From Dehalococcoidia bacterium (GTDB lineage Bacteria; Chloroflexota; Dehalococcoidia; UBA6926): a stretch of DNA of 64,000 nucleotides. The translations under genes were made by a program, and so were the position numbers. The notes beneath the pieces were generated by a model, which had not been told where the DNA came from, did not search any database, and saw only the letters and a list, made by a program, of their open reading frames with translations. Shown here in pieces: positions 655-44,649 of the stretch. The first letter of the stretch is position 1, and every line of letters begins with the position of its first letter. The stretch lies in NCBI GenBank assembly GCA_034428515.1, contig DAOUHQ010000013.1:82371-146370 (forward strand). Reading direction: 5' to 3'.

Positions 655-3600
655 CTATTCCAATGAAACGTCGATTGCCGTGGCTCCCCAAAAATTGAAC
701 CCGATAGAGAAGATGACTCGGGCATTTACCTTCAAGTTCCCGAAGACGCCTTGCACATCATTTCGGGAGTGGAAAAATACTCCGTCTGCGGTGCCGTCCC
801 GAATCACGAAACCGTAGTCGTACTCCAACCTGTCGATTCTCCCGGCAAACTGCTGTGGTCCTTCTTTAGCAGATATCGGGCCCCGGATGGCTCGTTTGAT
901 ATTTGGATTGAACGGAAGATCCCTGAGACGACGGAACCTGTTTCGTGCCTCATCAATATCTCCATTTACGTATAACTGGCGGGCATACCAAAACTGGGCT
1001 TCTATGTTTGAGTCACCCTCCGTGAACGCCCTCCGAAGGTGATACTCGATATCGCCATCATCGCCAGCATCTTGATCAATGAGCAACTTCGCATAGTTGA
1101 AATGAACTCGTTTATCAGTGACCCCAGATTGGATTGCGCGTTTGTAAACATTGACAGACTCAGGTACCTTGCCGCTCCCCTCTAGCATTTTGGCCAGACG
1201 GACAGCAACGAACTGACTATTGGGATTGTTATCAAAGGCAGCCTCTAAAGCTGTAATCGCTCTAGCCTCATCGGCCAATAGGTCTCCCAACTGAGATTCG
1301 GCATCTAACATGTAGGAGTCTCCAGGGAACCTCTGCAAGCCTTCTTGTATAAGCCCCTCAATTTCCTTTACAACATTTCTGAATTCGAGATCGTTCCAGT
1401 CATTCTCCTCGTCGTGAAAGAACCTCCGTAAATTGGCCAGCTGAATCTTAGCAAGAGTGTGTAGACCATGAGAGTCTACGGCAGCGGGCCCGGCCAGCGG
1501 CATCGCTAATTCTCTTGCAGCCCTTAAGCTTGACTGGAACTCCAAAGACGTCTTCGCGCCATCCGCTCGTCGCAGGTGAAGTTCTGCGAATGAGTGTGCT
1601 ATCGTCCGATCATAAGGAGCGAGAGTTCTTGCACGAGTCAAATGTTCTTCAGCCTTCTTGAGGCTTCCATTTGGCCGTACCATTTCAAAGATCGCCATCT
1701 GATGAAAAAGATACGGATACTCTCCAGCGTTCTTGCGGGCTGCGGCGAATATCTCGTCTACCATTCTGTTGTCTCGAAAGTCTTCCAGCAGAGACCTAGC
1801 TCGAACTAGCTTGCGAAAAGCTTTGCGGTCGGACTCATAATCGATGTTCATTGCGTTCAAGATGGTCAAGTGTAAATCTAGTCGTTCTTCGGGCGTGGTC
1901 ATCGCGCGAGCGACCACAATATCCGCTACATGAGGGTGTCGCGTAACATAAACGTAGTCGCCGATTCGTCGATCGAAACGGGAGAATACAAGGGCATCCA
2001 GCGGCTGAAAAAAACGCTCGGCGAATTGATTGAATCCAACTCCATACACTCGGTTGACTATTCCTGCTCGCACTGGAACGTCGTACCTGTTCAAAAAACA
2101 GACGCCCAAGTAAATCAATTGAGCGAGGATCGGACTCACCTCGGCATATTCGTCCGCAATGATGTCCTCAAAGGGTTTACCAAGCGTCGCCTCATGCAAC
2201 GCGACTAACAGTTGACGACCAGCCTTCTCTACAAACGCTGTCTTTCGTTCAGACTGCGAGACATTTTCTAGCCGAAATAGAGCACGGTGACTAGATAGGA
2301 GTTCCAGAAGTCCATCAATCTCCTTGCCTGTTAGATAGCCCACTTCGAATTCATAATCCAGGTAGGGCTCTAGCTCTTCACATGACATGTTCCACTCATT
2401 GACTCGCTCAGCCCCAATAACTGTAAGCGGGATCGTGTAACGGCGAGCTGCTTTGATTACATCAAGAACTTGAGCGGTGTGTTCACCGATATCGTCTACG
2501 AACAAGTAAATCCGCTCATTTACGACCCCCGACAATTCACGAAGAGCTTCAGGCGATAACTGGCCGCTCTTCTGCAAGAACAGGCAGAGACTATTGAAGG
2601 TTAGCGCAGCCTCCCAAGCGATTCGTTGCAATAGCACTGATTTCCCTGACCCGGCGTGGCCTTTGATTACGAATAGTCGACAGCGGGCACCTTCGACATC
2701 CTGTAGTATCGTATCTGTCAAGATGGTGTCTTGTAGCTCCCGCTTTACATCCAAGCCTTGCCCGACCGCAGCCCATCTTGGATTGTAACCTCTGTAAAAC
2801 AACTTGGCATCGAGGGCTTCTGTCGGCATAGCGTTGTATATGAAATCTACATCGCTCTCTAAGAACTCGAGGCATGACGCACTAAGGCCAGGGTCCTTGA
2901 CGACAAATCGCTCGCTGATTGGTAAGTCAGCCGCCACTGGGGATGGCACCACTCCACGGAATACACTGGGAAGTTCCCTATCTAGAGTCCGTAGGAACTC
3001 TTCGAAAGTACCCTCAAGAGGAGTGATCCGTTTCCCCTCCCAGAATCGCTTTTCAGGCCCCGACAGTTCAGGTGTTACTGTAAAATAGCGGGGCCGCTGA
3101 CTTGGCTCTCCCAAATCAAATAGGAATTGACGGATGTCTGGATCCTGAAGGCTTTGTCCTATGAACACTAGAGGATGTTCATAGGACAGATCCTTTAATT
3201 GTCCAAATAGTCGATCCCTACCTCTTCTGTGGGTGACGTATTGATCCACACTGAGGATTAAGGGCAGGGATTCGTCAGTTGTCCTAGTTATACATCCGTG
3301 TAGTTTCAAGAGCCTCAAACTCCTTGGAGATCTAAGTTTCTCTTCTATCTGGTCGCCATTCTTAATCAAAGGCACCAATTCCTGTGAAGGGTTTGGATAC
3401 GTACTATAAGCTCGCTCTATGACTAGGTCGAAATTCGTTGTCGCCAAGCCCGCCCATTTGAATGTTGGCAGCAGCGCATGAAATGAGGCAGGCTGAATGT
3501 CTTGAAACACATCGTGGATATATTGCTGTACCTCGGGCACACTACTCTCCGACATGGCCAGTTCAGAGACTATCGGTAACGGGCTATTGCTATGCTCTCC

Positions 3601-3774
3601 TCCCAGAAATTTTGTCCCTATCATTTCGGCAAGCTCTTTGCCACTCGGCGCCTTACTGCCCTCTGATGTAGATGCAGGGTTTGACGCGCCAGCGCCAAGA
3701 ACCAAGACCACCCTTCCTTCTTTCACGCTCTGCAGTAGGTTGTTGGGAATGTCCATAGCGCGCTCCAAAATCAC
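655..3774 (-). CDS. Sir2-STAND NTPase-TPR-cold-shock-domain protein (Avs5/AVAST-like anti-phage candidate)
   Basis: Sir2 motifs LVLGAGAS, TTNFD, KLHG, FIGQSL; Walker A GHAGSGKS; Walker B LFVDD; helical TPR-like region; C-terminal GRIDRLEYDYGFV...VFFH cold-shock/OB fold. Confidence 0.85.
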   Translation of the reverse strand: MILERAMDIPNNLLQSVKEGRVVLVLGAGASNPASTSEGSKAPSGKELAEMIGTKFLGGEHSNSPLPIVSELAMSESSVPEVQQYIHDVFQDIQPASFHALLPTFKWAGLATTNFDLVIERAYSTYPNPSQELVPLIKNGDQIEEKLRSPRSLRLLKLHGCITRTTDESLPLILSVDQYVTHRRGRDRLFGQLKDLSYEHPLVFIGQSLQDPDIRQFLFDLGEPSQRPRYFTVTPELSGPEKRFWEGKRITPLEGTFEEFLRTLDRELPSVFRGVVPSPVAADLPISERFVVKDPGLSASCLEFLESDVDFIYNAMPTEALDAKLFYRGYNPRWAAVGQGLDVKRELQDTILTDTILQDVEGARCRLFVIKGHAGSGKSVLLQRIAWEAALTFNSLCLFLQKSGQLSPEALRELSGVVNERIYLFVDDIGEHTAQVLDVIKAARRYTIPLTVIGAERVNEWNMSCEELEPYLDYEFEVGYLTGKEIDGLLELLSSHRALFRLENVSQSERKTAFVEKAGRQLLVALHEATLGKPFEDIIADEYAEVSPILAQLIYLGVCFLNRYDVPVRAGIVNRVYGVGFNQFAERFFQPLDALVFSRFDRRIGDYVYVTRHPHVADIVVARAMTTPEERLDLHLTILNAMNIDYESDRKAFRKLVRARSLLEDFRDNRMVDEIFAAARKNAGEYPYLFHQMAIFEMVRPNGSLKKAEEHLTRARTLAPYDRTIAHSFAELHLRRADGAKTSLEFQSSLRAARELAMPLAGPAAVDSHGLHTLAKIQLANLRRFFHDEENDWNDLEFRNVVKEIEGLIQEGLQRFPGDSYMLDAESQLGDLLADEARAITALEAAFDNNPNSQFVAVRLAKMLEGSGKVPESVNVYKRAIQSGVTDKRVHFNYAKLLIDQDAGDDGDIEYHLRRAFTEGDSNIEAQFWYARQLYVNGDIDEARNRFRRLRDLPFNPNIKRAIRGPISAKEGPQQFAGRIDRLEYDYGFVIRDGTADGVFFHSRNDVQGVFGNLKVNARVIFSIGFNFWGATAIDVSLE

Positions 3775-4673: not shown

Positions 4674-4771
4674 TCACCATCCTTCCGAACTTGAGCCAAC
4701 CGCCTTGCATTCTAGCGTGTGAGGCCCTTTCGAACAAAAACACAAAAAGGGCCTACATACATGGCCAGAGC

Positions 4772-4811
4772 AGGCGGGAGGATGTAGCCCACTGACTACA
4801 TCCTCCCGCCT
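4772..4811. terminator. Perfect 16-bp stem hairpin (8-nt loop) downstream of the helicase
   Basis: AGGCGGGAGGATGTAG (4772-4787) and CTACATCCTCCCGCCT (4796-4811); T-rich tract follows on the minus strand at ~4730-4750. Confidence 0.6.
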
Positions 4812-4845: not shown

Positions 4846-7137
4846 CTACGCCGGCACGGCCACCCTCTCTTCCTCGTGCTCCATTGCCACTGCCCATTCG
4901 AAGAGTGACTGGGTGGGTTGGGCGTTGCGGGGGCGGCCCATTTGCTTGGGTTTCGCCTCCGCCATGAACTCCGCCCAGGAGAAGAGCGAGCTCTGCGGCA
5001 CATCGGACTCTGGCTCCGTGCTGGCGACCGCTTGGAGCGGGTGCTCGGTTTCTTCCGCCGAGTGGACTTCCACGATGGTGGGTGCAATCTGCTCCGGTGC
5101 TTGCCAGCCGTCGTCCACCAGGTACGATTCCGACTCGGTTTCGGAAGCTCGGGCCTGGGCGAAAGCGGCTTCCACCGTGTCCGCCGCGTCGTCCTCATCG
5201 CCATTGACCAGCTTGCGAGCCAGGGCGAGCATGAGGTCATCGCCGTCGTCACCGTAGGCTGCGAGGCCATCCTCGGGTAGCTCTCCTTCGACTGCTAGCG
5301 ACGACTGGAGCTTCTTTGCCACCAGCTTGAGCGCGTCGGCTTGAAGGGTGTTCCAATAGGCCATCAAGATGACCTTCACGGGCCGGGTCTGGCCGATCCG
5401 CCACGAACGTCGGGATGCCTGCCGCATCGTGTACACCGAGTAGTCCGTCTCGTACCAGACGATGGTCGGGAAGTCCACGAGGTCGAGGCCGGTCTGGACA
5501 AGTCGCGGGTGGCAGATGATGACATCCACCCCCTGCTTGACCTTCTCTGCCACCCACGCCTCGCGCTTCTCCGGTGCCACCGCGTCCGCCTTCATCACGG
5601 CCACCTTGAACCCGTGTCGCGTGAGCATGTCGTCCATGCGGCCGGTGATGTCGCGGGTGCCCGTGTGAGTGGTGTAGACGAGGACCCGCCGCCCAGCCAA
5701 CCGTTCCGCCGCGACCAGGTCGAGCAGCGCCTTCTCCTTCGGGTAGACGCGATCCTCGGCCAGCGGCGGCACCTGGATGAGGGGCTCGCCAGAGTCCGGA
5801 TCGAAAACCGTCTCGCCACGCGTGCAGCCGTCAGGGTAGGCCAGCAGCGACTGCAGGTAGGTGGAAAGGAGCCGCCGCGACCCGTCGGCCAACGCCTTTA
5901 CCATCGCGTGCCGCAGCTTCTCGAACAGCTTCTCGTAGGCCGACTTCTGCGAGAAGCCCGTCGCATCGGCATCCGGGTCCATTCCCGCCAGCATGACCTG
6001 TTCCTCGTAGTCGGGCAGGCCGGATGCCACGTCCGACAGCCGCAGGAACACCGAGTTACCGATGAGGTGGAAGAGCGCGGACGGCGCGAGGCCGGGGCGT
6101 TCCTTCACAGTCTTCCGATACTTGCGACGGCGGCTGTTGCGACCGTCCTCCGTGAAGCGGTCGTCGTCCTTGCCGATGGAGTGCTCGACGAAGCCGTAGC
6201 GTGTGATCCAGCGTCCCTCCTCGGACCGTCCGAACTCCGAACGAATCGCCGGGCTGAACCTGTAGAGCAGGTGAAACAGCGTCGAGCTGTAGCCGCCCAA
6301 CAGCGTGCCGGTCAGTGTGAGCGACCGACCGCAGGCGTCGGCTAGCACGCCCGCCGCGATGCCCTGCGCGGAGCCTCGTCCCTTGTACTCATGGACCTCG
6401 TCTCCGATTAGCAGGTCGAAGAATCCGCGCATGTGGTTCTTGACGTAGTCGGAGAGCGGGTAGCGGCGCGGCCCTGAGTTGTCCGCCTGCCAGAGCGGGC
6501 CGTGGCACTCGGGGCAGTTCCGCTTGCGGCGCGAGAGGTCCTCGTCCGAGAGCGGCACGCCGTCGGCGTCCACGATCTGCTCCGCGCAGACGGGGCAGGT
6601 CGGGATGCGAAACGGCAGCCCTGTCTCCTCCATCCGCATCAACCTGCCGCCCGCGACCGCCCAGCGGTTTACGACGGCGGGCTGCCAGCGGTAGGACAGT
6701 TTGGCGCGCTCGCGGGACATGATGGCGAAGAGCGGGCCAAGTGTGACAGCGCGTCTGAGGTTCACCAGGTCCGTGATGGAACTGACGATCACGGCACGTG
6801 CGCCCGGGATGGTCTGCTCGACCTCTCGCTTCCACTTAACGGTCAGGTGGGGCGGCACGAGGACGAGGATGCGTTGAAAGCCGGCGGCGTGCGCGGCGGA
6901 CGTCGCGATGAACGTCTTGCCCGTACCCATCTCGCCGACGACGGTTGTGCCTCGGTTCGCCCGGAGCGAGAGCGCCGCCCCGCGAATCGCGTCCGCCTGA
7001 GCGCCGAGCGGGGTGCGGAGCAGCGTGGGCAGCGGAACCGAACCGGCGTCGGAGGGCCGGTAGAGGGGAGGGTAGGATTCCACGACGCGCTGAGCGATTG
7101 CGTCCTTGTAGGTGTCGATGAATTCACCGAGATTCAT
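4846..7137 (-). CDS. SF2 (SNF2/DEAD-like) helicase of ICE type
   Basis: Walker A GEMGTGKT, DEVH box, TLTGT, helicase-C motifs (TGLDL...QASRRSWRIGQ). Start set at MNLGEF (7137, AAGGAAAGGAAGG upstream) rather than 7674. Confidence 0.85.
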   Translation of the reverse strand: MNLGEFIDTYKDAIAQRVVESYPPLYRPSDAGSVPLPTLLRTPLGAQADAIRGAALSLRANRGTTVVGEMGTGKTFIATSAAHAAGFQRILVLVPPHLTVKWKREVEQTIPGARAVIVSSITDLVNLRRAVTLGPLFAIMSRERAKLSYRWQPAVVNRWAVAGGRLMRMEETGLPFRIPTCPVCAEQIVDADGVPLSDEDLSRRKRNCPECHGPLWQADNSGPRRYPLSDYVKNHMRGFFDLLIGDEVHEYKGRGSAQGIAAGVLADACGRSLTLTGTLLGGYSSTLFHLLYRFSPAIRSEFGRSEEGRWITRYGFVEHSIGKDDDRFTEDGRNSRRRKYRKTVKERPGLAPSALFHLIGNSVFLRLSDVASGLPDYEEQVMLAGMDPDADATGFSQKSAYEKLFEKLRHAMVKALADGSRRLLSTYLQSLLAYPDGCTRGETVFDPDSGEPLIQVPPLAEDRVYPKEKALLDLVAAERLAGRRVLVYTTHTGTRDITGRMDDMLTRHGFKVAVMKADAVAPEKREAWVAEKVKQGVDVIICHPRLVQTGLDLVDFPTIVWYETDYSVYTMRQASRRSWRIGQTRPVKVILMAYWNTLQADALKLVAKKLQSSLAVEGELPEDGLAAYGDDGDDLMLALARKLVNGDEDDAADTVEAAFAQARASETESESYLVDDGWQAPEQIAPTIVEVHSAEETEHPLQAVASTEPESDVPQSSLFSWAEFMAEAKPKQMGRPRNAQPTQSLFEWAVAMEHEEERVAVPA

Positions 7138-7241
7138 GGGCGTCCTTCCTTTCCTTTTGGTGCTATGGTGATTCGGCGAGGCTCCGGCACCCGGTGGGGG
7201 AGGGTGACGGAGCCTTGAGATTCGGCCATGGCATTGACCGT

Positions 7242-8282
7242 CTAGGCGGCGATGTCTGTTATCTCGCCGTCGTCGAGGCCGAGGGCGACGACCGTCGTCT
7301 TCAGCCTCTCGCGGAACACCTCCTTCTCCGGCGTCTCGTCGACGAGCTCCATCTCCTTCGACGTGCGCCCCTTGACGAGGATGCGCCTGCCGTCCGCCTC
7401 CAGCTGGAGGTTGTCCAGGAAGCCGGCCGCCACGAGCATGGCCATGTGACCGCGCCGCAGCGGCATGAGCGGACGGGTGCGGTCCTCGCTCGCGGGCCAG
7501 AGGACATCTGTGATTTGTGGGTTCGTCCACAACCCGGCGCGTCTCGCCTCGACCGCCGCGGCAACGGGATCGACCGTGCGCCGCGTGAAGAGGATGTCCC
7601 CGACGGCGGTCACCGGCGGATAGAAGACCGTGTACTGGGAGTGGGTCAGCGTCTCGGGCTCCCCCTCGGCCCATTCCCTGATCTGCGCCTCCGTGGAGGA
7701 GTCGGGGCTGGGATCCGAGCGCCGGATGGCCATGAGCACCACCTGGTCGAAGACCTCCCGCTCGGGGTCGGGAAACGCCCAGCAGCGCACCCGCGTGTAG
7801 TGGGTCGACAGGAACCGCGCCGAGACGGCGAGCCGTTGGCGGGGCACGATGAAGACCAGCACGCCGCCGTCGACCAGGTAGCGGGTGCAGTGGGTGAGGA
7901 AGGCGTGTTCGACGCGCTTCTTGTCGTCCTGCTCCCAGTCGTAGGGCGGGTTCAGGTACAGCAGCCCGAACGCGCCGTTGGCGATGGACGTCTGGAAGGC
8001 GTCCGCCGGGAGCACGTGGTCGAGCCGTTCGGCGGCCTCTTCTGCCCGCTCCTTGTGGAGCTCGACGCCGTAGCTCTCGACCGCCGCCGTGCCGCCCTGC
8101 CGGAGCAGATCGGTCAGCCGTCCGAGAGCGTCGCCCGGGCCGCAGCAGGGATCGAGCGTGCGGATGCTCGCCTTCGATGCCTGATGGTAGCCGTAGGGCT
8201 GCCGCATCAGGCCGCCGATCATATCGACGACCCGGTCCGGCGTGGGATAGTAGCCGCCCTTGGCCTGTGCCGCGAGTCTCAT
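7242..8282 (-). CDS. SAM-dependent DNA methyltransferase-like protein (DUF6094-type)
   Basis: GGYYPTP, LDPCCGPG (motif I), LYLNPPY (amino-MTase motif IV). Start set at MRLAAQ (8282, AAGGAG upstream). Confidence 0.85.
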   Translation of the reverse strand: MRLAAQAKGGYYPTPDRVVDMIGGLMRQPYGYHQASKASIRTLDPCCGPGDALGRLTDLLRQGGTAAVESYGVELHKERAEEAAERLDHVLPADAFQTSIANGAFGLLYLNPPYDWEQDDKKRVEHAFLTHCTRYLVDGGVLVFIVPRQRLAVSARFLSTHYTRVRCWAFPDPEREVFDQVVLMAIRRSDPSPDSSTEAQIREWAEGEPETLTHSQYTVFYPPVTAVGDILFTRRTVDPVAAAVEARRAGLWTNPQITDVLWPASEDRTRPLMPLRRGHMAMLVAAGFLDNLQLEADGRRILVKGRTSKEMELVDETPEKEVFRERLKTTVVALGLDDGEITDIAA

Positions 8283-8295
8283 GTGACTCTCCTTT

Positions 8296-8688
8296 CTAGT
8301 CCGTGTCCTTGTCGTTGATGCCGACGACCTCGCCGACGCCGTGGGTCTGCTGGAAGCAGAGCGCCTGGCTCGTCCTGAGGCGTGCTGCGCAGGTCGTACA
8401 GTAGGCCGTGACGATCTCCGCGTCACGGGCGACGGCGACGCGCTTGACGAGGATCACCCTCTCCGCGCCGATGCGGTAGGTGTAGAGCGTCACGCGTCCG
8501 TCGCCGCTCTCCTCCCGCGTGGCGGGACGGTAGAAGTGGGGCTGTACGGCGACGGTCAGGTGGGAGCCGCCGTCGTGTCCGCAGTAGGGGCAGATGCCGC
8601 GGTCGAGCGCGAACCTCTTCCATGCGCGGACGTTCTTCTGTCGCCGCTTGACGTTGGCGCGGCGAGCTTTCCTGAGCGTCTTATCCAT
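8296..8688 (-). CDS. Hypothetical protein with two CxxC pairs (possible Zn-binding)
   Basis: CPYCG and YCTTC; fits operon spacing. Confidence 0.6.
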   Translation of the reverse strand: MDKTLRKARRANVKRRQKNVRAWKRFALDRGICPYCGHDGGSHLTVAVQPHFYRPATREESGDGRVTLYTYRIGAERVILVKRVAVARDAEIVTAYCTTCAARLRTSQALCFQQTHGVGEVVGINDKDTD

Positions 8689-9313
8689 CGGCGGCCTCCG
8701 ATTGCCGGAGCGTAAGCGCGCCCATGCCGACGGCCATCGAGAGGTCCTCGCGGAGCGCCTCGGAGTCGGGGGAGCACCGGTAGGCGACGATGCCCTGTGA
8801 GTCGAGCCTGACGATCTCCTTCCGTCGCTGCCCGCGCTTCCAGAGCCACTCCGCCCAGTCGCGGTGCAGCGGCAGCGGGCTCCGCCGGTCTAGGAAACGG
8901 TGGTGCAGGGCGGGGGCCGCGTCCTCCGACTCCGCGAGCAGGAGGAAATCGTCGCGTTCGAAGGCGTACTCCGCCATGCGGGTGAAGACCAGCGCGTGCC
9001 AGCCGCCCGACGACTGGAGTCGCTGGATCTTCGTCGTCCAGGTGCCGATGGTGGTGGGCGGGATGACGCAGCGCTGGTAGCCGCCGGAGATGGCCATGCC
9101 GTCCACGCCGCGAATCAGGTGGGCGGGCTCGGGCGGCTGCTTGAGCATTGAGCCCCAGATGGCCTTGAGCGCCGTCTGCGCCCCGACCATCGACAGGAAC
9201 CAGAGCGTGCCGTCCTTTGGATCGCGAGCAAATGCGTCCGCCGTGGCGGAGAAGCCGCCCGCGTTCACCGTGTACAGCGACTCGGCGTCGATCATTACAG
9301 TCTGAACAGTCAT
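8681..9313 (-). CDS. Conserved hypothetical ICE protein
   Basis: Start set at MTVQTV (9313) after AGGAAAGG; overlaps the next gene by 8 nt. Confidence 0.65.
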   Translation of the reverse strand: MTVQTVMIDAESLYTVNAGGFSATADAFARDPKDGTLWFLSMVGAQTALKAIWGSMLKQPPEPAHLIRGVDGMAISGGYQRCVIPPTTIGTWTTKIQRLQSSGGWHALVFTRMAEYAFERDDFLLLAESEDAAPALHHRFLDRRSPLPLHRDWAEWLWKRGQRRKEIVRLDSQGIVAYRCSPDSEALREDLSMAVGMGALTLRQSEAADG

Positions 9314-9372
9314 TGGCGTTTGTCCTTTCCTGTAGGGAGCGGGTGGATGCGGGAGCGATGTCCCGTGACGCC

Positions 9373-9879
9373 TCAGTCGATGTGGCCGAGGTCCTTGATG
9401 CTGGCGAAGTTGTCGCCGCCGATGACGACGTGGTCGAGGAGATCGACGCCCAGCAGCTTGCATGCCCGCTGGAGTTCGCGGGTGGCTCTGATGTCCTCCG
9501 GGCTGGGGGTGGGATCGCCCGACGGGTGGTTGTGGGCCACGATGAGGTGCGGCATGCCCTCCACGACGGCGGGCCTCAGCACCTCGGCGGGCCGGATGGC
9601 GCATTCGCTGACCGTGCCCTGGTAGATGACGCGCTGCCCCGCGAGGTGGTTCCTCTTGTCGAGCAGCAGGACGCGCAGCTGTTCCTGCGCCAGGTCCGCC
9701 ATCTCGTCGCGCAGCAGCGCGTGAACGTCGTGGGGGCTGGAGATGGTGACGGTCATACCGTCACGTCGGGAGGGTTTCGTGCTCACCTCGTAGCGGACGG
9801 CGAGTTCTCCGAGGAGTTGGAGATTGGTGCGGAGCGCGTCGATGATCTCGGACGGCTCCGAGGACTTCTTGCGAGTCAT
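9373..9879 (-). CDS. radC: RadC-like JAB/MPN domain protein
   Basis: QEQLRVLLLD, AHNHPSGDPTPSPED, LLDHVVIG motifs. Confidence 0.92.
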   Translation of the reverse strand: MTRKKSSEPSEIIDALRTNLQLLGELAVRYEVSTKPSRRDGMTVTISSPHDVHALLRDEMADLAQEQLRVLLLDKRNHLAGQRVIYQGTVSECAIRPAEVLRPAVVEGMPHLIVAHNHPSGDPTPSPEDIRATRELQRACKLLGVDLLDHVVIGGDNFASIKDLGHID

Positions 9880-9914
9880 GGGGAGTTCCTCCGTAGGGAC
9901 TCGATAACGGAAGA

Positions 9915-9975
9915 CGGGGCCGCTCCCGATGTGGGAGTCGGCCCCGTGTGGCGCCTGCTCTGGCGGGCAGGCGTC
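9915..9975. repeat. Intergenic double-hairpin repeat, copy 1 (ssb/radC)
   Basis: CGGGGCCGCTCCC...GGGAGTCGGCCCCG, then a CGCCTGC/GCAGGCG stem. Confidence 0.7.
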
Positions 9976-9989
9976 GTTCGCCGGTCCAG

Positions 9990-10388
9990 CTAGAACGGCG
10001 AGCTGCCCGGCTCAACGTCCTCGTCGAACCCGGCGGAGTCGTGGTTGGACGAGTTGCCATTGCCGTTGCCGCCGTCCAGGAACACCACCTCCGAGGCGTA
10101 GATCTCGGTGGCGTAGCGGCGCGTCCCGTCCTTGGCTTCGTAGCTGTTCTGGGCGAGGCGGCCCGCGACGTAGAGCCGCTGGCCCTTCCGGACGTACTGG
10201 TTGACGGCCTCGCCGAGCTTGTCCCACACCGTGATGGTGTGCCAGTCGGCCTCGGTCTCCCCGTTCTGGCGGTTCCGGTCCGTGGCCAGCCGAAGCTGGG
10301 TGACGGCGGTGCCGCTCGGCGTGTAGCGCATCTCGGGCTCGTTGCCCACGCGGCCCAGCAGCTCGACGCGATTGATCGTGCGTGACAT
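9990..10388 (-). CDS. ssb: Single-stranded DNA-binding protein
   Basis: INRVELLGRVGNEPEMRYTPSG...; acidic tail ending PF. Confidence 0.95.
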   Translation of the reverse strand: MSRTINRVELLGRVGNEPEMRYTPSGTAVTQLRLATDRNRQNGETEADWHTITVWDKLGEAVNQYVRKGQRLYVAGRLAQNSYEAKDGTRRYATEIYASEVVFLDGGNGNGNSSNHDSAGFDEDVEPGSSPF

Positions 10389-10440
10389 TTCTGACTCCTT
10401 CTCGCAATTGGATGCGATCTTTCGTGGCGCGGTATTGCGC

Positions 10441-10511
10441 CTCCTTTAAGGAAGAGCGGGGCCGCTCCCGTTCATGGGAACAGCCCCGTCGTGCGCCCTC
10501 CGGGGAGGGCG
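10441..10511. repeat. Intergenic double-hairpin repeat, copy 2 (nuclease/ssb)
   Basis: CTCCTTTAAG, then CGGGGCCGCTCCC...GGGAACAGCCCCG (10457-10488), then a CGCCCTCC/GGAGGGCG stem. Confidence 0.7.
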
Positions 10512-10512
10512 G

Positions 10513-11568
10513 CTAGCTGACGCGGACGTACTCGGAGAGGTTCTCCGTGACGATCTCCGCGCGGGTCTCGGGGTCGAGCAGGGCGTTGAGCTTCCTGTGG
10601 TCCACGGCATAGCGCCGCGACTGCACGAGGTTGACGGTGTGACCGTCGATCTCCGCCTTGCCCGATTCCCGGCCCGTCATCCACGCTCTGAGCGTGGCAA
10701 GCGCCGCGCGCTTGGCCTGCTCCGGCCCGCGCACGGCGTCCTGCGCCGACAGGTAGTCCGCGACCGCCCTCCGCGCATCGTCGTCGTTCACCTCCGTGAC
10801 CTCACGGCCGTCCTCTTCAATGTCATCTGCCTGTGCGGCCACCTCCGGCTGGCAAGTCGCCAGGAACGGGCAACTCCGGCACTGCCACGACTCCGCCGTG
10901 AAGTCGCGGTCCGGTAGTGAGTCGGGATCCGGCCCGATGAGTGCATGGTGCGCGGCCAGTTGCCCCAGCCGTTTAGAGGCGTCCCGCAGCGCCGTCGTAA
11001 GCCGCTCTGCCGGGATCACCTCGTAGTCCCATGTCCTGCTGCCGGTTTCCATGCAGGCGATGACCGCGTCCCGCATCTCGCCGAACACGCCCAGCGTGTA
11101 GACGGCCACCTGCGCGACGGCGTTCGGGTGGCTGCGTTCCGCGCCGAGCACCTGCCAGCGCTTGAAGGCATCGGGGTTGCGGGTCTTCACTTCTATGACC
11201 GCCTCGCCGCCGAAGATCGGCATGTCGCCGGTCGCGTCGGGGTGGCCCGTGACCCGCAGTCTCGCTCCAATAGGAACGGATACCGGTTGCGGGTTCTCGC
11301 GTTCGGTCGGGTGGATCTCCCAGCCCGCCCGTTCCATCGCCCTGAGCACGACGGGTTCCAGCGCGGTGCCCGCCTCCATCGTGGTGAGGGAAGGTTCCGA
11401 GGGCGGGTTCGTGATGCGATGCCCCGTCGCGGCGTACCAGAGGGACCGCCGGCAATCTCCCACCGCAGAGGCGCGAATCTCCAGCACGCCGTCCTCACGG
11501 AACCGCGCGTTGGGCCGCGAATAGGGATCCGCTCCCAAATCTGAATCTGACTCAATCGTGGTCGTCAT
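10513..11568 (-). CDS. PD-(D/E)XK (RecB/Cas4-like) exonuclease with probable Fe-S cluster
   Basis: GHPD...IEVKT nuclease motif, QVAVY; N-terminal Cys (GDCRR) plus CRSCPFLATC give a four-Cys staple. Confidence 0.8.
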   Translation of the reverse strand: MTTTIESDSDLGADPYSRPNARFREDGVLEIRASAVGDCRRSLWYAATGHRITNPPSEPSLTTMEAGTALEPVVLRAMERAGWEIHPTERENPQPVSVPIGARLRVTGHPDATGDMPIFGGEAVIEVKTRNPDAFKRWQVLGAERSHPNAVAQVAVYTLGVFGEMRDAVIACMETGSRTWDYEVIPAERLTTALRDASKRLGQLAAHHALIGPDPDSLPDRDFTAESWQCRSCPFLATCQPEVAAQADDIEEDGREVTEVNDDDARRAVADYLSAQDAVRGPEQAKRAALATLRAWMTGRESGKAEIDGHTVNLVQSRRYAVDHRKLNALLDPETRAEIVTENLSEYVRVS

Positions 11569-11594
11569 CTCGTTCCTCCTGTAAGGAATGACTA

Positions 11595-11981
11595 TCAGGC
11601 GGCGCGTTCGGTTGCGCCGTGTTGCCCGTCGGACGCGAAGGGCCGCAGGACATGTGTGATGGCGTCGGCGATGCCATGCACCCAGCCGCTTGACCCGTCG
11701 GGCAACTGGTTCGGCCAGGGCTGCATCTCGTGGATGCCCGCGAGTTGATCGACGATCTCGGCGATTGGCGTCCCGCGTCTGAGGTGCAGCGAGACGAGGC
11801 GGCAGGCCGTCTCGGTCAGGCCGCGCTCGAACGTGCCCGCCTTCCCCAACTGCCCGAAGACCTCGAAGGGCTCGCCGTTCTCGTCCACCGAGACGGTTAG
11901 GTAGAGGTTGCCGTGCGCGGTGGCGATCACCGTCGTCGTGCCGCTCAGCGAGCGGGGCCGTGTTCTGCTCGTCTGTTCCAT
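11595..11981 (-). CDS. Stand-alone TSCPD domain (class II ribonucleotide reductase C-terminal/NrdJb-like)
   Basis: RPRSLSGTT...GNLYLTV...PFEVFGQLGKAG...RLVSLHLRRG...EIVDQLAGI. Start set at 11981 after AAAGGAGAG. Confidence 0.7.
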   Translation of the reverse strand: MEQTSRTRPRSLSGTTTVIATAHGNLYLTVSVDENGEPFEVFGQLGKAGTFERGLTETACRLVSLHLRRGTPIAEIVDQLAGIHEMQPWPNQLPDGSSGWVHGIADAITHVLRPFASDGQHGATERAA

Positions 11982-11992
11982 GTGTGCTGCCT

Positions 11993-12099
11993 CTCCTTTA
12001 AGAGGAGGCGGGGCCATCCCTCATTTCGGGAGGCGGCCCCGCTGTGCTGCTCGTGGACTGGCGACTAGGCCGCCGTCGGTGGCTCCGCCGGCCTAGTCT
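11993..12099. repeat. Intergenic double-hairpin repeat, copy 3 (rad52-like/TSCPD)
   Basis: CTCCTTTAAG, then CGGGGCCATCCC...GGGAGGCGGCCCCG (12009-12041), then a GACTAGGCC/GGCCTAGTC stem. Confidence 0.7.
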
Positions 12100-12832
12100 G
12101 TTCGTCGACCTTCCTCTCCGCCGCCGCAACCAGATCGGCCAATTCTTCGGTGCTGATCTGGGTGATGGCTCTGCCGGTGCGCGCCTTGACCGCGGCCTCC
12201 ACCTGCTCGGCGTTGAATCCTTGTGCTTTGCCGAGCTCGTACAGACGGATGCCCAACTTCTGCCTCTCGACCGCCGGCCTGGTCGACGGCTCCCTCGTCA
12301 CTTCGACGATGGCCGTCTGCGGATCGCCGTAGAGCGCGTTTCCGAAGCGCGCTCCGAAAGAGCGCAGCGCCCGCTTGAGGCCGTCGGTGACGGCTCCCTT
12401 GACGGCCGTCTCATGCCCGTCGGCGTTGTCCTCGACGACTGCGTGGAATCCAACGTCCATGCGGGAAGGCGCTCCAAGGACCGTGACGCGCACGGTGGCG
12501 GCGTAGGCGCGGATGCGGCGGATCTCGCCCGTCTTGGCGTCGATGCTGTCGATCTTCCGCAGTGTCACCTCGCCCATCACGTCGTAGCCCCAGCCGCCGT
12601 AGCCGAAGACGCGATTGGCTTCGTCAATGACCGTGTGCCCCTCGATGTACGAGAAGGTCTTGCCGCCGCGCCCCTTCCGCTGGGAGACAAGTGCGGGGTC
12701 GATGGGTGTGTCCAACTCCTGCCTGATGCCGGGCGCGAGACCGTCCCAGAGGATGGCGTCGTGCCCGTTCACCGGCGTGATGGCGGTAGGCTTCGTGCCG
12801 TTCTTGTGACCGTTCTCATTCGTGCTGACCAT
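12065..12832 (-). CDS. Rad52/Rad22-family (Sak-like) single-strand annealing protein
   Basis: RKGRGGKTFSYIEGHTVIDEANRVFGYGGW...AVKGAVTDGLKRALRSFGARFGNALY. Start set at MVSTNE (12832). Confidence 0.88.
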   Translation of the reverse strand: MVSTNENGHKNGTKPTAITPVNGHDAILWDGLAPGIRQELDTPIDPALVSQRKGRGGKTFSYIEGHTVIDEANRVFGYGGWGYDVMGEVTLRKIDSIDAKTGEIRRIRAYAATVRVTVLGAPSRMDVGFHAVVEDNADGHETAVKGAVTDGLKRALRSFGARFGNALYGDPQTAIVEVTREPSTRPAVERQKLGIRLYELGKAQGFNAEQVEAAVKARTGRAITQISTEELADLVAAAERKVDEQTRPAEPPTAA

Positions 12833-12885
12833 TGTTCTCTCCTTGCTTGTCCGATAGGTGAGCGGGCCGTCAGTCGACCCGTGTG

Positions 12886-12910
12886 CGGGGCGAAATAGCC
12901 CCGTCGTCGC
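12886..12910. repeat. Shortened copy 4 of the intergenic hairpin (primase/rad52-like)
   Basis: CGGGGC-GAAATA-GCCCCG-TCGTCGC; shares the AGCCCCGTCGT flank with copy 2. Confidence 0.5.
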
Positions 12911-12917
12911 TTGCTGG

Positions 12918-13970
12918 TTATCGTTCCCGTCTCTTCTCCCGCGCCGCATCGGCCAACTGGGCGATGAAGGCGGCGCGTCCGTCCGGCGCGGTGGCGAGTT
13001 CGCCGACGTCCATGAAGTCGCGAGGAAGCTGGACGACCGCCGAACGACGGCCCAAGAGGGCAGAGAGTCGTTCGGCGGCGGCGACGCCGGCATCGTCCCT
13101 GTCGAAGGCGACGAACACGTTGGCGAACCGCGAGACCGCCTGAGCGACACGTTCGAGGCCCTGTGTTCCAAGGGCGGCGCAGCCGGGTAGGCCCCACTGC
13201 GCCAGCGTCAGCCAGTCGAACATCCCCTCCGTGACGATGACCCATCGGGCATCGCTGGGGATGGAGCCCAGACCGAGCACCGGCTTGGAGCCGGTCAACG
13301 CCTGGAAGCGAGGCCGCGCCCCGTGCGTGATCGCTCGCCCCCCGAGCCATCGGACGAGGCCGCCGGCAACGTCGGGCACGACGAGCCTGCCTCCGAAGCG
13401 CTCTGCGCCACGTTCCGTGAACAAACCGGAGCGGGCTACCCGCTCGCCGTCGAAGCCGGCGGCGAGCAGCGCCTCGCGCAGTCGCGCTCCCGGCGCGTAG
13501 CCGAGACCGAGCTTGATTGCCGTGGCAATCGCGATTCCTCGACCTTCGAGGTAGGCGAGCGCGTCCTCGCTTCCAAGCAGCTGTGCTGCGTAGAAGCGCG
13601 CGGCCGCCGTGAGGACGGCGCGATCCCGCGCTGGAGGCGGCTCCACGCGCGCCCGCGACTCAAGCCGGGCGTTGCGTGGGTTAAGGACGGCAGTGCCGCC
13701 AAGCAGTTGCAACGCTCCGACGAGTGGCACCGACTCCGTCCGCTGGATGAAGTCCAGTACGTCGCCGCCCTCGCCGCAGCCGAAGCAGTACCACCGCTGC
13801 GAGTCGCCGTAGACAGTGAAACTGCCCTCTGCCTCGTCGTGGAACGGGCAGACGCCCTGACGGACGCGGCCCGTGCCGCGCAACTTCACGCCGGCGGACT
13901 CCACGATGGCGGCGAGGTCGTGACGCGCCTTGACCGCCGCGATGTCGATGCAGGGTGCTGCGACAGTCAT
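12918..13970 (-). CDS. dnaG: DnaG-type primase (CHC2 zinc finger + Toprim), element-encoded
   Basis: CPFH...WYCFGCG; Toprim VTEGMFD and AFDRD; lacks a C-terminal helicase-binding domain. Start set at 13970. Confidence 0.85.
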   Translation of the reverse strand: MTVAAPCIDIAAVKARHDLAAIVESAGVKLRGTGRVRQGVCPFHDEAEGSFTVYGDSQRWYCFGCGEGGDVLDFIQRTESVPLVGALQLLGGTAVLNPRNARLESRARVEPPPARDRAVLTAAARFYAAQLLGSEDALAYLEGRGIAIATAIKLGLGYAPGARLREALLAAGFDGERVARSGLFTERGAERFGGRLVVPDVAGGLVRWLGGRAITHGARPRFQALTGSKPVLGLGSIPSDARWVIVTEGMFDWLTLAQWGLPGCAALGTQGLERVAQAVSRFANVFVAFDRDDAGVAAAERLSALLGRRSAVVQLPRDFMDVGELATAPDGRAAFIAQLADAAREKRRER

Positions 13971-14422
13971 GCCGGCCTCCCCGTGAGGTCCCGCAAGCCG
14001 CGCAGGCTTCGACGGGAGACAACCTTCCCGGGCCGCCACTTCATGCCGAGCGCGGCAACAACTTCGAGATCGCCCCGGGCGAGTTGTCCCAGGGCGGCGG
14101 CACGACCGTCGCCCTGCGTGTAGACCAACACCCGCTGCCGCCCGAAGCAGCGGCGCACGAGGTCAAACCACTCGTTGTAGAGCCACCGCTTCTGCTCCAG
14201 CGCTGCGCCTCTGGCGTCGGCCGCCGAGAGCGTTGCCAGTGCCTCCTCGGGCTTGCCCTCGCGCCGTAGCCGACGTGCCTCGTGGATCGCCCTGGCGATG
14301 CTGAGAGACTCTCTCTTCTCCGAGTTCCGTCCGAAGATGGCCGCGATCAACCTGTCCACCAGCGGCTCCAACGCCGCCATCGGACTCTCGTCGATGAACT
14401 CAGTTGCCGTTGTCGTGGTCAT
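13967..14422 (-). CDS. Hypothetical protein
   Basis: Start MTTTT at 14422 after AAAGGG; TGA overlaps the primase ATG. Confidence 0.6.
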   Translation of the reverse strand: MTTTTATEFIDESPMAALEPLVDRLIAAIFGRNSEKRESLSIARAIHEARRLRREGKPEEALATLSAADARGAALEQKRWLYNEWFDLVRRCFGRQRVLVYTQGDGRAAALGQLARGDLEVVAALGMKWRPGKVVSRRSLRGLRDLTGRPA

Positions 14423-14696
14423 GTCCAACCCTTTCCTTCTCTCTCTTCGTGCGAGCTCGTTCTGCCGCCCGTCTCTGCGCCGCGCCCGCCGCCTTGCCGA
14501 CGGCCCAGCCCAGCGCGAGCCGCCTGAACTGGAACAGGACATAGGCCAGCCCGATCGCGTTCAGAACGCAGATCTCCGGGTCTCGTAAGAGGGCGAACGG
14601 CAGGATGAACAGCGCCGTCACTGCCGCGATCAGCAGCAGGCAGCGGTGCCGTACCAGCAGCCCCAACGCCCTCACGGGAATCAATGCAATGCGCAT
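14400..14696 (-). CDS. Small membrane protein, first gene of the leftward operon
   Basis: Two hydrophobic segments; AAGGAGG upstream of ATG 14696. Confidence 0.6.
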   Translation of the reverse strand: MRIALIPVRALGLLVRHRCLLLIAAVTALFILPFALLRDPEICVLNAIGLAYVLFQFRRLALGWAVGKAAGAAQRRAAERARTKREKERVGHDHDNGN

Positions 14697-15419
14697 GTGC
14701 GCCTCCTTGATGAGTAGCGGCCCACGCCGGCATCCGGGCGCAGGTCTAGTGCTGTCGAAAGGGGAAATGGGTATAGCTCGCCGGCGGTCGGATGCCAAAC
14801 CATCGCGCGAGTTGAAAGGGAATTCATGGGACGCAGCCGACGAGATTTCCCAAGAGGGAAACCGCCGTCACTGCCGCCCGAAATGGAAACGCCGGCCTCG
14901 GCTTCTGCCGCCGACCGGCAATGTATGAGAGACCCGCCTAGCTACGATTCACGTGGCTCTCGCGGGCAAGTCGAATCAGCCGAAGCGCAAGTGGCGTTCC
15001 GGCCGATGTGTGGAGCGGTCAGACTGCGAGTCGCAACCTGTCCGCAAGTTCCCGCTGTTCGAGGTGGCTCACGTGAGAGAAAACTCTCAGTAGTGATCCA
15101 CCTCTCGCCCCGGGGAGCGATGTTCCCGTGTTCGCGATGGGAAATGGGGAGAAACTCGACCCTTTCCTGTCACTCGCCGCAGGAAGCGATGGTCCCGATT
15201 TCGGATGTCCGGAGAGAAATCAATCGATCCCCGTGCATGTAACCCAGGTCGTTCGGGATAACCCGTCCAGGTTTCTAAGGTCAGAAACGCTGGAAAGCCA
15301 AACAACCCTGCTATTCTTATCGCCCACGCGGTCTCTGGCAAGGGGATTTTGCCGTTCCTGGGCGTCCAGAAGGGAATCGTTCCTAGACATTACCATGCCG
15401 TTTCCATTTAGTTAACAAA

Positions 15420-15446
15420 TCAGGGCTGGCACGAAGACAGCCCTGA
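15420..15446. terminator. 9-bp stem hairpin just downstream of the 293-aa gene
   Basis: TCAGGGCTG/CAGCCCTGA; AT-rich tail on the minus strand. Confidence 0.5.
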
Positions 15447-15450
15447 TCAG

Positions 15451-16332
15451 CTAGCCCCACCACACCCCGAACGTCGCCAGCCGTCTAACCCAACGGAGCA
15501 TCTTGCGACGAAAAATCCTCCGCCTGACGACGCGGAGATCGTCCAACCGCCATTTCGTGATGTGTCTGCGCCAGTGGTCGTCAATGGGTTTATCGTCCGG
15601 CGGCAGAGTCAGCTTGTACTCATTCAGCAGCACCAGCTCCACGATCAGCAGCCGCTCCTGCCTCTCCAACCACGTTAGCGTCCTACCTTTCAGTGAATGA
15701 TTCCGCTGCAGCATCCGCCACTCGCGTACGAGCGGCCACGCCTTTCGGTACACATATGAATCGTCATTGGCTGGCTCGACGGTCACGATGTCGTCGTAAT
15801 TGCGGCGCGGGAATGTTGGCCTAGTCTGCTTCTGGGGAGCCTCGATGGAAGTGATCGATGTAACACCCCGACCCCGCCGTGCAGACTTCGTTCTCTTGGC
15901 GCCCGTGGGTCTCGCCTGTTGAGCCGACGAATCCCCGCTAATCTTCCGTTCCAGGACGCGGATGGCCCTGTCCTGTTCGGCTCCGTGCGTTTCGATCGTT
16001 GTGCGTAGCTGTTTCGAACCGGCCACAATTTCCTTGACGACGCCCTCCACCTTGGCAAGCCGGTCATCCAACACGGTGAGGCGTTCCTCATGCAGCTGAA
16101 AGATCGGGTTGTCTTCTGAGAGCAGTCTCAGTTCCAACGCGTGTGTCATCCGTCTCGACAACCGCCGGGTCTCTTGGGCTGCGGCGAGGGTCTTGTAATT
16201 CACGCCCAGCTTGCTTGCCGCCTGCATCGGTCCCTCTTCGCGCACGATTCGATCCATCAGGATGAGCAACGCTTCACGCCCTCGCGCCGTCTCTCCCTGC
16301 ACGTCATCCAGCATCAGCAGATCGTCTTCCAA
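15451..16332 (-). CDS. Hypothetical protein with N-terminal HTH-like and coiled-coil segments
   Basis: PMQAASKLGVNYKTL is HTH-like; heptad-rich middle; AAGGAGG upstream of the start. Confidence 0.6.
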   Translation of the reverse strand: MEDDLLMLDDVQGETARGREALLILMDRIVREEGPMQAASKLGVNYKTLAAAQETRRLSRRMTHALELRLLSEDNPIFQLHEERLTVLDDRLAKVEGVVKEIVAGSKQLRTTIETHGAEQDRAIRVLERKISGDSSAQQARPTGAKRTKSARRGRGVTSITSIEAPQKQTRPTFPRRNYDDIVTVEPANDDSYVYRKAWPLVREWRMLQRNHSLKGRTLTWLERQERLLIVELVLLNEYKLTLPPDDKPIDDHWRRHITKWRLDDLRVVRRRIFRRKMLRWVRRLATFGVWWG

Positions 16333-36813: not shown

Positions 36814-37070
36814 GTGACTCTTTACCGGGCCAGCTTCTGGTGTAGAGGAACCCGTACTCTTGCGGCTATATTGAGTCAGCCTACCAAAATACATGTAACT
36901 GATGTGTCATTTTTTGATGATAACTCATGACTTTTTATGACGATTTGGAGAACTCTGTAAGATTGCCTCCGTTGGCACCCAATTATGCGGCACCTAAAAT
37001 GGAAGGAATGTAGATGCCCGCATGTCCGCATCGAGGCAACTATGTGGACCGATCAGACGAACTGATGTGA

Positions 37071-37431: not shown

Positions 37432-37462
37432 GCCCCTTACCAGTCGAACGGTGGGGGGAACG

Positions 37463-38908: not shown

Positions 38909-38921
38909 GAGCTACCGCGTC

Positions 38922-42071: not shown

Positions 42072-42099
42072 GCCTATAATCGGCGCAGGGAGTGGGGAG

Positions 42100-42768: not shown

Positions 42769-42974
42769 CACCAGATTCCCCGAGATTTCGGGAATAAAGG
42801 CAAGCCCCGAAATTGGGCGAGTGGGTACTCCATCGCCTGTTATCTAGATCCATAAGTGTGAACATTTGCGAACACGTTCTTTGCTCCAGCGCAAGAACCC
42901 TTGACTGCGCCCATGTAGTTATGACAAGTATGATATAGCTCAGACGTACGAACCCAGTTCTAAGGAATCTCGTC

Positions 42975-44630: not shown

Positions 44631-44649
44631 CCAGCTGAGCTAACCGCCC
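44573..44649 (-). tRNA. tRNA-Val(CAC)
   Basis: GGGCGGT acceptor stem, anticodon arm CTTCC-TTCACAC-GGAAG, GTTCGAGTCC T-loop, encoded CCA. Confidence 0.96.

Follow-up and report, generated by a model that had tools for sequence, protein, structure and literature searches.

The DNA analysed here is a stretch of 64,000 nucleotides from a Dehalococcoidia bacterium (contig DAOUHQ010000013.1, positions 82,371 to 146,370), referred to as the window. To judge by its genes, the window carries an integrative conjugative element (ICE) of the Dehalococcoidia genome, and our subject is a set of hairpins within one minus-strand operon of that element. The operon encodes, in order, a small membrane protein, the conserved protein hyp151, a primase, a Rad52-type protein, a TSCPD protein, a nuclease, SSB, RadC, two hypothetical proteins, a DUF6094 methyltransferase and an SNF2-type helicase. 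The gaps primase/rad52, rad52/TSCPD, nuclease/ssb and ssb/radC are occupied by one G+C-rich stem each (Table 1).

Hairpins at the gene junctions of one operon

The initial annotation of this region had described four related CGGGGC..GCCCCG stems in intergenic gaps, in front of genes that it named radC, ssb, TSCPD and rad52-like. The stems were borne out by a pattern search. CGGGGC-N(4-30)-GCCCCG has exactly four matches in the 64 kb, all intergenic and all in this operon, where 0.60 would be expected, and four matches were reached in none of 100 shuffles. The gene names were confirmed by Pfam. Three of the stems are full members of a family, as described below, while the fourth, in the primase/rad52 gap, has a stem of only 6 bp, is without a U-rich tail and scored at most 7.9 bits with the family model, which does not recognise it. 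The small double hairpin of that gap is also present in relatives L001-L010. Second stems next to the first ones, also pointed out initially, were recovered by folding at the ssb/radC, nuclease/ssb and primase/rad52 junctions. The main hairpin of the nuclease/ssb gap contains two U-G pairs, possible in the sense strand only, and was flagged as terminator-like (10488-10457) by a simple scan.

Two of the stems had further been reported to abut an identical block of the ribosome-binding type. Both copies of this block, CTTAAAGGAG, are exact on the minus strand, at 10441-10450 and 11993-12002, and the latter lies in the Shine-Dalgarno region of the TSCPD gene. The former is 52 nt upstream of the ssb start (10388), and ssb has a GAAGGAG of its own. 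We read the copy at 10441-10450 as a piece of a duplicated hairpin-plus-tail unit and not as the ribosome-binding site of ssb. In relatives, GGGCGCGGC..GCCCG is found at the position of the small hairpins that follow in the nuclease/ssb gap of the window.

A search with the Rad52 protein led to 80 loci, nearly all in metagenome-assembled genomes of Dehalococcoidia/Chloroflexota, with the same operon gene order throughout and often two or three loci per genome. A covariance model of the hairpin, R1, was trained on 56 relatives with the window sequences left out. On the sense strand it scored the three full window hairpins at 58, 48 and 47 bits, against 18-27 bits on the other strand, and it gave zero further matches in the 64 kb. 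Across the relatives, hairpins were found at 59 of 73 junctions from rad52 to the next gene, 45 of 72 from TSCPD to the nuclease gene, 67 of 77 from the nuclease gene to ssb and 69 of 75 from ssb to radC. The five other junctions of the operon have practically none and are either gapless or hold smaller, different hairpins. Every family member is on the coding strand and lies between the stop codon of the rad52, TSCPD, nuclease or ssb gene and the Shine-Dalgarno sequence of the gene that follows. The hairpins are thus in front of the next gene, as first stated, and equally behind the stop codon of the upstream one.

Two exact variants of the motif, one palindromic and one asymmetric, were searched in 185,579 genomes, one per species. 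The palindromic variant gave about 41 matches in Chloroflexota, every one inside this operon, and 62 of the 65 matches of the asymmetric variant were inside the operon, on the coding strand and at the expected junctions. About 35 matches of the palindromic variant came from Actinobacteria and other phyla, with unrelated flanks and with the ICE genes absent, and we read these as chance convergence of G+C-rich terminator stems. A scatter over the host chromosome, of the kind formed by REP/BIME repeats, was not seen, and the model had no further match in the remaining 60 kb of the window. The scan of the window and the two scans of the genome collection together rule out a repeat spread through the host genome or a generic terminator of the host. 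An Rfam 15 scan of positions 7000-16000 returned two chance-level matches (E 0.3-0.4), neither at a hairpin, and blastn of the hairpin region against plasmid and phage collections gave zero matches.

The length of the hairpin ranges from 27 to 41 nt among copies. An accessory hairpin was detected at 57 of 65 ssb-to-radC junctions and 57 of 59 nuclease-to-ssb junctions (88-97%) and in 36-47% of the other two junction types, to be read against 64% in random coding windows, which makes this a weak control. L028 has four tandem units of about 38 nt at 9291-9465 (GCGCATCGACCGACGCCTTCGGGAGAAGGC), ahead of its ssb-to-radC hairpin, which represent an amplified accessory hairpin.

The spaces between hairpins vary in gene content. 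Extra small genes with a hairpin on either side were seen in L013 (8866-9587), L016 (8876-9295), L061 (9052-9405 and 10019-10372) and L070, L077 and L079 (about 8900-9690), and examples of proteins encoded in such slots are a DUF2958-like protein of 125 aa, a 118-aa protein and a 117-aa protein. Most relatives have a gene for a 106-aa or a Cys-rich 114-aa protein between rad52 and TSCPD, and the window is without it. Some elements have a duplicated ssb, each copy with its own hairpin (two ssb matches each in L044, L050, L071 and L078), and the whole module occurs in two or three copies in single genomes; OZ242191.1, OZ244718.1 and OZ253489.1 are among these cases of duplicated ssb or module. 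In L012 an ORF (open reading frame) for a transposase-like protein of 317 aa (8087-9040) interrupts the operon between TSCPD and the nuclease gene. From its appearance it may be IS110-like.

Strand preference, conservation and the U-rich tail

A preference for the coding strand was apparent when the two strands were compared. Folded as RNA, the gaps gave z-scores of -5.1, -5.6 and -3.8 in the sense orientation and of -4.4, -1.4 and -1.7 in the antisense orientation. The 168 unique hairpins contain 166 G-U pairs in the sense and 48 in the antisense strand, with a mean energy of -25.0 versus -22.9 kcal/mol (difference 2.1; Wilcoxon p 9e-9). Above 38 bits the model matched the sense strand only in the 80 loci, and its antisense matches fell on those same sites with lower scores. 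Folded as DNA, both strands form hairpins (sense z -5.9, -2.9 and -2.7).

A covariance model and a scan of relatives had been proposed with the initial annotation, and together they brought out both covariation and conservation. In the model-fitted alignment 94.8% of cells pair, compared with 46-59% when the partner column is slid, and the covariation was above that of all 500 shuffles. The stem consists of 13-15 pairs and closes a loop of 4-8 nt. Its outer eight pairs, CGGGGCCG/CGGCCCCG, are near invariant among 140 distinct copies, the outer arms forming a perfect 8-bp inverted repeat, and the inner five pairs vary between C-G, U-G and U-A with the pyrimidine always in the 5' arm. Departures from the common stem keep the pairing: C-G is changed to G-C in L074, G-C is changed to A-U in L060, L071 and L078, giving the new stem GAGGCCGCG..CGCGGCCUC, and one G and one C are lost together in L057 and L009. 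Taken together, the strand bias, the pairing and the compensatory changes indicate that a helix of the coding strand is under selection.

The initial annotation had stated that no U-tracts follow the stems. This does not hold for the sense strand, where the tails of the three full window hairpins are UCUUCCGUU, CUCUUCCUU and CCUCCUCUU, with 4, 5 and 4 U in 8 nt. In the family, the first position of the tail is C in 91% of copies, and T accounts for 47-79% at positions +2 to +4 and +7 to +9, the T content of this strand being 14%. At least four T in the 8-nt tail were found in 82% of 218 unique copies on the sense strand, in 15% on the antisense strand and in 3% of the background; for at least five T the corresponding values are 43%, 1% and 0.3%. 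The tract begins immediately 3' of the stem and is interrupted (C-UUU-C-N-UUU); it is enriched in U but weaker than a canonical U tract of about 7-9 nt. A distant subfamily has a different stem yet keeps the same UUCUCGUUUCC tail.

Two further structures of the window lie outside the junctions. On the minus strand at 15415-15447, directly after the stop codon of a 293-aa ORF, there is a canonical terminator, TCAGGGCTG..CAGCCCTGA followed by TTTGTT, indicating that terminators with a classical U-tract are in use in the host or the ICE. The stop codon of the SNF2 helicase gene is followed (4720-4810, minus strand) by two hairpins of unrelated sequence, GGGAGGATGTAG..CTACATCCTCCC and GGCCCTTT..AAAGGGCC, with a T-rich loop; the end of the operon thus uses other structures than the internal junctions.

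The operon, its promoter and the surrounding element

The operon is preceded by a promoter of the sigma-70 type, the only convincing one that it has, whose hexamers are kept in 12 relatives, distant ones included. The promoter is followed by a conserved inverted repeat, GGTTTC-N8-GAAACC, and this 70-nt block (15255-15341) is the only part of the leader that is kept in distant relatives. The block is likely the promoter plus operator of the hairpin operon; a role as origin of transfer (oriT) is also conceivable. Two small proteins without known function open the operon, after a leader of about 600 nt (14697-15312). One of them, hyp151, has 1,630 relatives and no Pfam match. Further downstream, at the hairpins, the next Shine-Dalgarno sequence follows about 12-40 nt after the stem. 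This leaves no room for a promoter, so the downstream genes rely on read-through and the hairpins must be leaky.

The conjugative context given in the initial annotation was substantiated by Pfam. The hairpin operon adjoins type IV secretion genes of divergent orientation, and the plus strand from 17.4 to 27.2 kb encodes TrbL/VirB6, PrgI, a VirB4-like ATPase, a coupling protein and a Replic_Relax protein. At 37.4-44.6 kb (37451-44649) the end of the ICE carries ImuB-like, DnaE2-like and SRAP genes and a large serine recombinase. The recombinase gene lies beside tRNA-Val/tRNA-Met and abuts or overlaps tRNA-Val (44573-44649), which is the probable integration site of the element. In a literature search we found no paper describing this Dehalococcoidia ICE family.

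Two other large genes were noted on the minus strand. A 1039-aa protein with SIR2-like, STAND NTPase, TPR and cold-shock domains (655-3774) is encoded just outside the G+C-rich ICE block and is a candidate defence gene. Within the ICE, a 2421-aa ORF with fibronectin type III repeats (29629-36894) may encode a surface adhesin of the conjugation system.

Table 1. Hairpins, tails, promoter and genes of the hairpin-bearing operon (positions in the window)
Feature	Position	Strand	Basis
Main hairpin ssb/radC, full family member: CGGGGCCGACUCCC-ACAUC-GGGAGCGGCCCCG	9915-9946	minus	pattern match; model 47.9 bits minus, 18.1 plus; gap fold z -5.1
U-rich tail of ssb/radC hairpin, UCUUCCGUUAUC, then radC Shine-Dalgarno GGAGG and start codon (9879)	9903-9914	minus	sequence; 4 U in 8 nt
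Accessory hairpin GACGCCUGC..GCAGGCGCC, upstream, 3 nt short of ssb/radC main hairpin	9950-9975	minus	fold
Main hairpin nuclease/ssb: CGGGGCUGUUCCC-AUGAAC-GGGAGCGGCCCCG	10457-10488	minus	pattern match; fold; model 58.1 bits minus, 18.4 plus
Tail of nuclease/ssb hairpin, CUCUUCCUU, then AAAGGAG(G) block	10441-10456	minus	sequence
Accessory hairpin CGCCCUCC..GGAGGGCG, directly after nuclease stop codon (10513-10515)	10494-10511	minus	fold
Two more small hairpins (GGCGCaauaccGCGCC, UCGCAuccaauUGCGA) between main hairpin and ssb start	10402-10442	minus	fold
Main hairpin rad52/TSCPD: CGGGGCCGCCUCCC-GAAAUGA-GGGAUGGCCCCG	12009-12041	minus	pattern match; model 46.9 bits minus, 26.6 plus; fold z -3.8
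Tail CCUCCUCUU and AAAGGAG, Shine-Dalgarno region of TSCPD gene (start 11981)	11993-12008	minus	sequence
Short variant pair primase/rad52: CGGGGC-UAUUUC-GCCCCG (12886-12903), then CGGGUCGacugaCGGCCCG (12863-12881)	12863-12903	minus	pattern match; fold
Sigma-70-type promoter of operon, TTGCCA-17-AAGAAT (-10 context TAAGAAT)	15313-15341	minus	scan and conservation
Hairpin-bearing operon	4846-14696	minus	ORFs and Pfam
DnaG-like primase (CHC2/Toprim)	12918-13970	minus	Pfam
Rad52-type annealing protein (Rad52_Rad22)	12065-12832	minus	Pfam 3.8e-29
TSCPD protein	11595-11981	minus	Pfam 7.7e-16
Cas4/RecE-like PD-(D/E)XK nuclease	10513-11568	minus	library profile scan
SSB	9990-10388	minus	Pfam 1.5e-33
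RadC	9373-9879	minus	Pfam 6.9e-38
Two hypothetical proteins	8296-9313	minus	ORFs
DUF6094 methyltransferase	7242-8282	minus	ORFs and Pfam
SNF2-type helicase	4846-7137	minus	ORFs and Pfam

Possible functions of the hairpins and known counterparts

A G+C-rich hairpin with a U-rich tail, placed after a stop codon in the sense orientation, has the anatomy of an intrinsic terminator. Building on the observed structure, strand, tail, positions and conservation of the hairpins, the reading that we favour, with moderate confidence, is that they act as leaky intrinsic terminators and/or 3'-end stabilisers that punctuate the mRNA of the ICE operon. Behind the stop codons of rad52, the nuclease gene and ssb, and in most relatives also behind that of TSCPD, the sense transcript would form a highly stable stem-loop, and a fraction of the RNA polymerases would be halted at each junction. 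The 3'-terminal hairpin that remains would shield the upstream message from 3' exonucleases. The expected outcome is a graded dosage of the recombination and single-stranded DNA (ssDNA) handling genes, with spurious read-through damped. Termination, stabilisation and the efficiency of either are predictions from the sequence. Among the functions listed in the initial annotation, an element acting at the level of mRNA is favoured by the sense-strand fold, the G-U pairs and the U-rich 3' tail. Behaviour as plain terminators, named in the initial annotation as a refuting outcome, comes near to what the sequence suggests, though the conservation of the sequence is stronger than in such terminators.

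Several observations weigh against this reading. The U-tract is short and interrupted, the window copies having only 4-5 U in 8 nt, and the average terminator stem is 7-9 bp (PMC10325885) compared with 13-15 bp here. Between copies whose ssb genes are saturated at four-fold sites (51% identity), the outer 8 bp still show about 98% identity, a comparison that is subject to an ascertainment caveat, 92% of junctions passing its filter. Such identity is unlike that of ordinary terminators and indicates a constraint beyond that of a stable hairpin. Terminators before ssb and radC without a later promoter also look wasteful unless read-through is regulated, and no antiterminator was recognised among the ICE ORFs in Pfam, NCBIfam and PHROGs scans. 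The near-invariant stem is left unexplained and three explanations for it found no support, so that a sequence-specific factor or a second role in ssDNA jointly keeps about a quarter of the probability.

What these options share is the proposal that the CGGGGCCG/CGGCCCCG stem is a recognition element, either read in RNA by a factor of the ICE, perhaps a protein from the operon head, or recruiting the ICE primase in ssDNA. We hold this to be unlikely. In its RNA form, which by itself we consider rather unlikely, the hairpin would be a sequence-specific recognition site for an ICE or host factor, namely a processive antiterminator or attenuator protein or an endoribonuclease. The latter would cut the polycistronic message into stable monocistronic pieces, with 3' ends capped by the accessory hairpin and the 5' ends that follow by the main hairpin. 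A factor of this kind would account for the near invariance of the outer 8 bp where synonymous sites are saturated and would fit a motif that proved private to this operon in genome-wide scans. The promoter, the leader of about 600 nt and the two small head proteins also resemble the conAn layout of pLS20 (PMC8191782, PMC13401043), and the GAGGCCGCG stem is common to L060, L071 and L078, a subfamily that is also without hyp151, TSCPD and hyp130. The variant stems with compensatory changes show at the same time that the sequence requirement is not absolute. Scans of the ICE ORFs with Pfam, NCBIfam and PHROGs brought up no RNA-binding, NusG-like, Q-like or nuclease candidate, and a model of hyp151 (pLDDT 76) was without a fold match in the PDB (best E 0.14). 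An attenuator pairing between the 3' arm of the accessory hairpin and the 5' arm of the main one was rejected, since the alternative pairing was no better than in controls (mean duplex -7.9 kcal/mol, versus -8.2 reversed and -8.6 shuffled).

Roles in DNA were weighed on the same evidence. During conjugative transfer the hairpins could act in ssDNA as SSB-free priming signals of the ssi type for the host primase or the DnaG-like primase of the ICE, which would need the sense strand to be the transferred one and would turn the region double-stranded quickly. A primase, an SSB and an annealing protein of the Rad52 type are indeed encoded in the operon, the type IV secretion genes adjoin it in divergent orientation, and its hairpins fold as DNA on both strands, as noted above. 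An oriT in the upstream leader, if there is one, would make the sense strand the entering one. Hairpin-type ssi signals are known in leading regions, according to the account of Nomura 1991 given in PMC11541004. The hairpins are nevertheless confined to 3-4 kb and are not spread along the element, and their U/T-rich 3' tail and C-G, U-G, U-A pattern are what an RNA terminator predicts. Taken together, this makes priming improbable. We know of no priming signal that requires such a tail or such a pattern.

More improbable still is that the conserved blocks of 30-45 nt are DNA recombination joints, at which the Rad52, exonuclease and SSB of the element itself would swap cassettes between ICE copies. 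Cargo genes and duplicated ssb genes are indeed flanked on both sides by hairpins (L013, L016, L061, L070, L077, L079 and L050), there are two or three module copies in several genomes, and the ssb of L004 is 60% identical to that of the window while its neighbours are 74% identical. Discordance in the pairwise identity of neighbouring genes was no higher at hairpin junctions, with 0.109, 0.102, 0.004 and 0.015, compared with 0.037, 0.040, 0.100, 0.099 and 0.028 at junctions without hairpins, and mosaic breakpoints showed no consistent excess at the hairpin junctions. The strand asymmetry and the U-rich tail would also go unexplained by a role in double-stranded DNA. A further DNA reading is that of double-stranded operators, palindromes bound by a dimeric regulator or partition protein, and the perfect, conserved 8-bp inverted repeat would suit these well. 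The spacing between the 8-mers, however, varies by more than 10 bp in hairpins of 27-41 nt, the arms differ as G-U pairing predicts, a T of the 5' arm facing a G of the 3' arm, and the conserved T-rich flank is on one side only. Operators were rejected on the variable spacing and the one-sided T/G asymmetry, and we give them very little credence.

The possibility raised in the initial annotation, that these are ssDNA promoters, fared worst. Frpo-like promoters would drive ssb, radC and other genes from the entering strand, and the gene set (ssb, a methyltransferase and possibly anti-defence cargo) and single orientation are indeed like those of plasmid leading regions (PMC11541004). In Frpo elements a long imperfect stem contains the -35, -10 and UP boxes (PMC11541004), while the stem CGGGGCCGCUCCC/GGGAGCGGCCCCG has 13 bp and more than 85% G+C and is without TTGACA- or TATAAT-like hexamers. 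Structure and G-U pairs favour the non-template (sense) strand, and Frpo forms on the transferred strand, the template of the downstream genes. The hairpin ends as little as 12-40 nt ahead of the next start codon, and a conserved promoter of the ordinary sigma-70 type lies upstream. We regard the Frpo-like reading as close to refuted.

If the hairpins are indeed leaky terminators or stabilisers, they would be an ordinary regulatory device that is new in its location, in a very abundant, undescribed family of conjugative elements from uncultured Dehalococcoidia, most of them marine or associated with sponges. The hairpins recur in hundreds of related elements, and the motif, specific for one strand, marks this ICE family cleanly and could be registered as a new RNA family. 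A lesson of the analysis is that repeated hairpins beside the ssb gene of a conjugative element need not be ssDNA promoters. Novelty could come from one point, the strict conservation of the stem, through a trans-acting factor or a dual role in RNA and ssDNA. A factor acting on RNA would mean that conjugative elements of the monoderm type in Chloroflexota have a new system of antitermination or processing, and a role in the entering strand would mean hairpins that serve in both RNA and ssDNA.

Comparisons with known systems can be made at several levels. Frpo and ssi are ssDNA promoters and priming signals of plasmid leading regions (Masai & Arai 1997; PMC11541004). The present hairpins resemble them as repeated secondary structures near the ssb and methyltransferase genes of a conjugative element with a single gene orientation. 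They differ in having no -35, -10 or UP boxes, in their far shorter stems, in being optimised on the coding strand and in their position downstream of stop codons and directly before ribosome-binding sites. The CUP repeats of IncN plasmids are likewise repeated, conserved non-coding units before several establishment genes; they are long, promoter-bearing and double-stranded, unlike the 32-nt hairpins without promoter boxes seen here. The modular look of genes plus hairpins, with variable cargo in between, recalls the attC sites of integrons, in which R''/R' cores (RYYYAAC/GTTRRRY) and extrahelical bases are typical and which are used by the tyrosine integrase IntI. Here the stems are perfect, no R-box cores flank them, IntI is absent and the only recombinase of the window is a large serine recombinase.

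The closest counterparts act in RNA. Intercistronic stem-loops, such as the REP sequences in malEFG and those of the Rhodobacter puf operon, stabilise upstream segments of mRNA. As in those cases, a stable hairpin is found just after the stop codon in a polycistronic message, where a block of 3' exonucleases and unequal amounts of the cistrons would be expected. REP sequences are host-wide repeats, whereas the hairpins described here are private to one ICE operon and have a U-rich tail. Conjugation operons with many internal intrinsic terminators are also a known design (PMC8955417, PMC10325885); in that of pLS20 more than 20 are predicted, and these are bypassed by conAn antitermination (PMC8191782, PMC8955417, PMC10325885). 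In contrast to pLS20, the hairpins of the ICE have a near-invariant stem throughout the element family and a short, interrupted U-tract, and they lie in a DNA-processing and establishment operon, not in the operon of the secretion system. No conAn-like factor was recognised in the ICE, where termination is a prediction and antitermination a possibility. The two systems have in common a G+C-rich stem-loop with a U-rich tail on the sense strand, occurring several times in one long operon of a conjugative element, downstream genes that need read-through, and a promoter, a long leader and small genes at the start of the operon.

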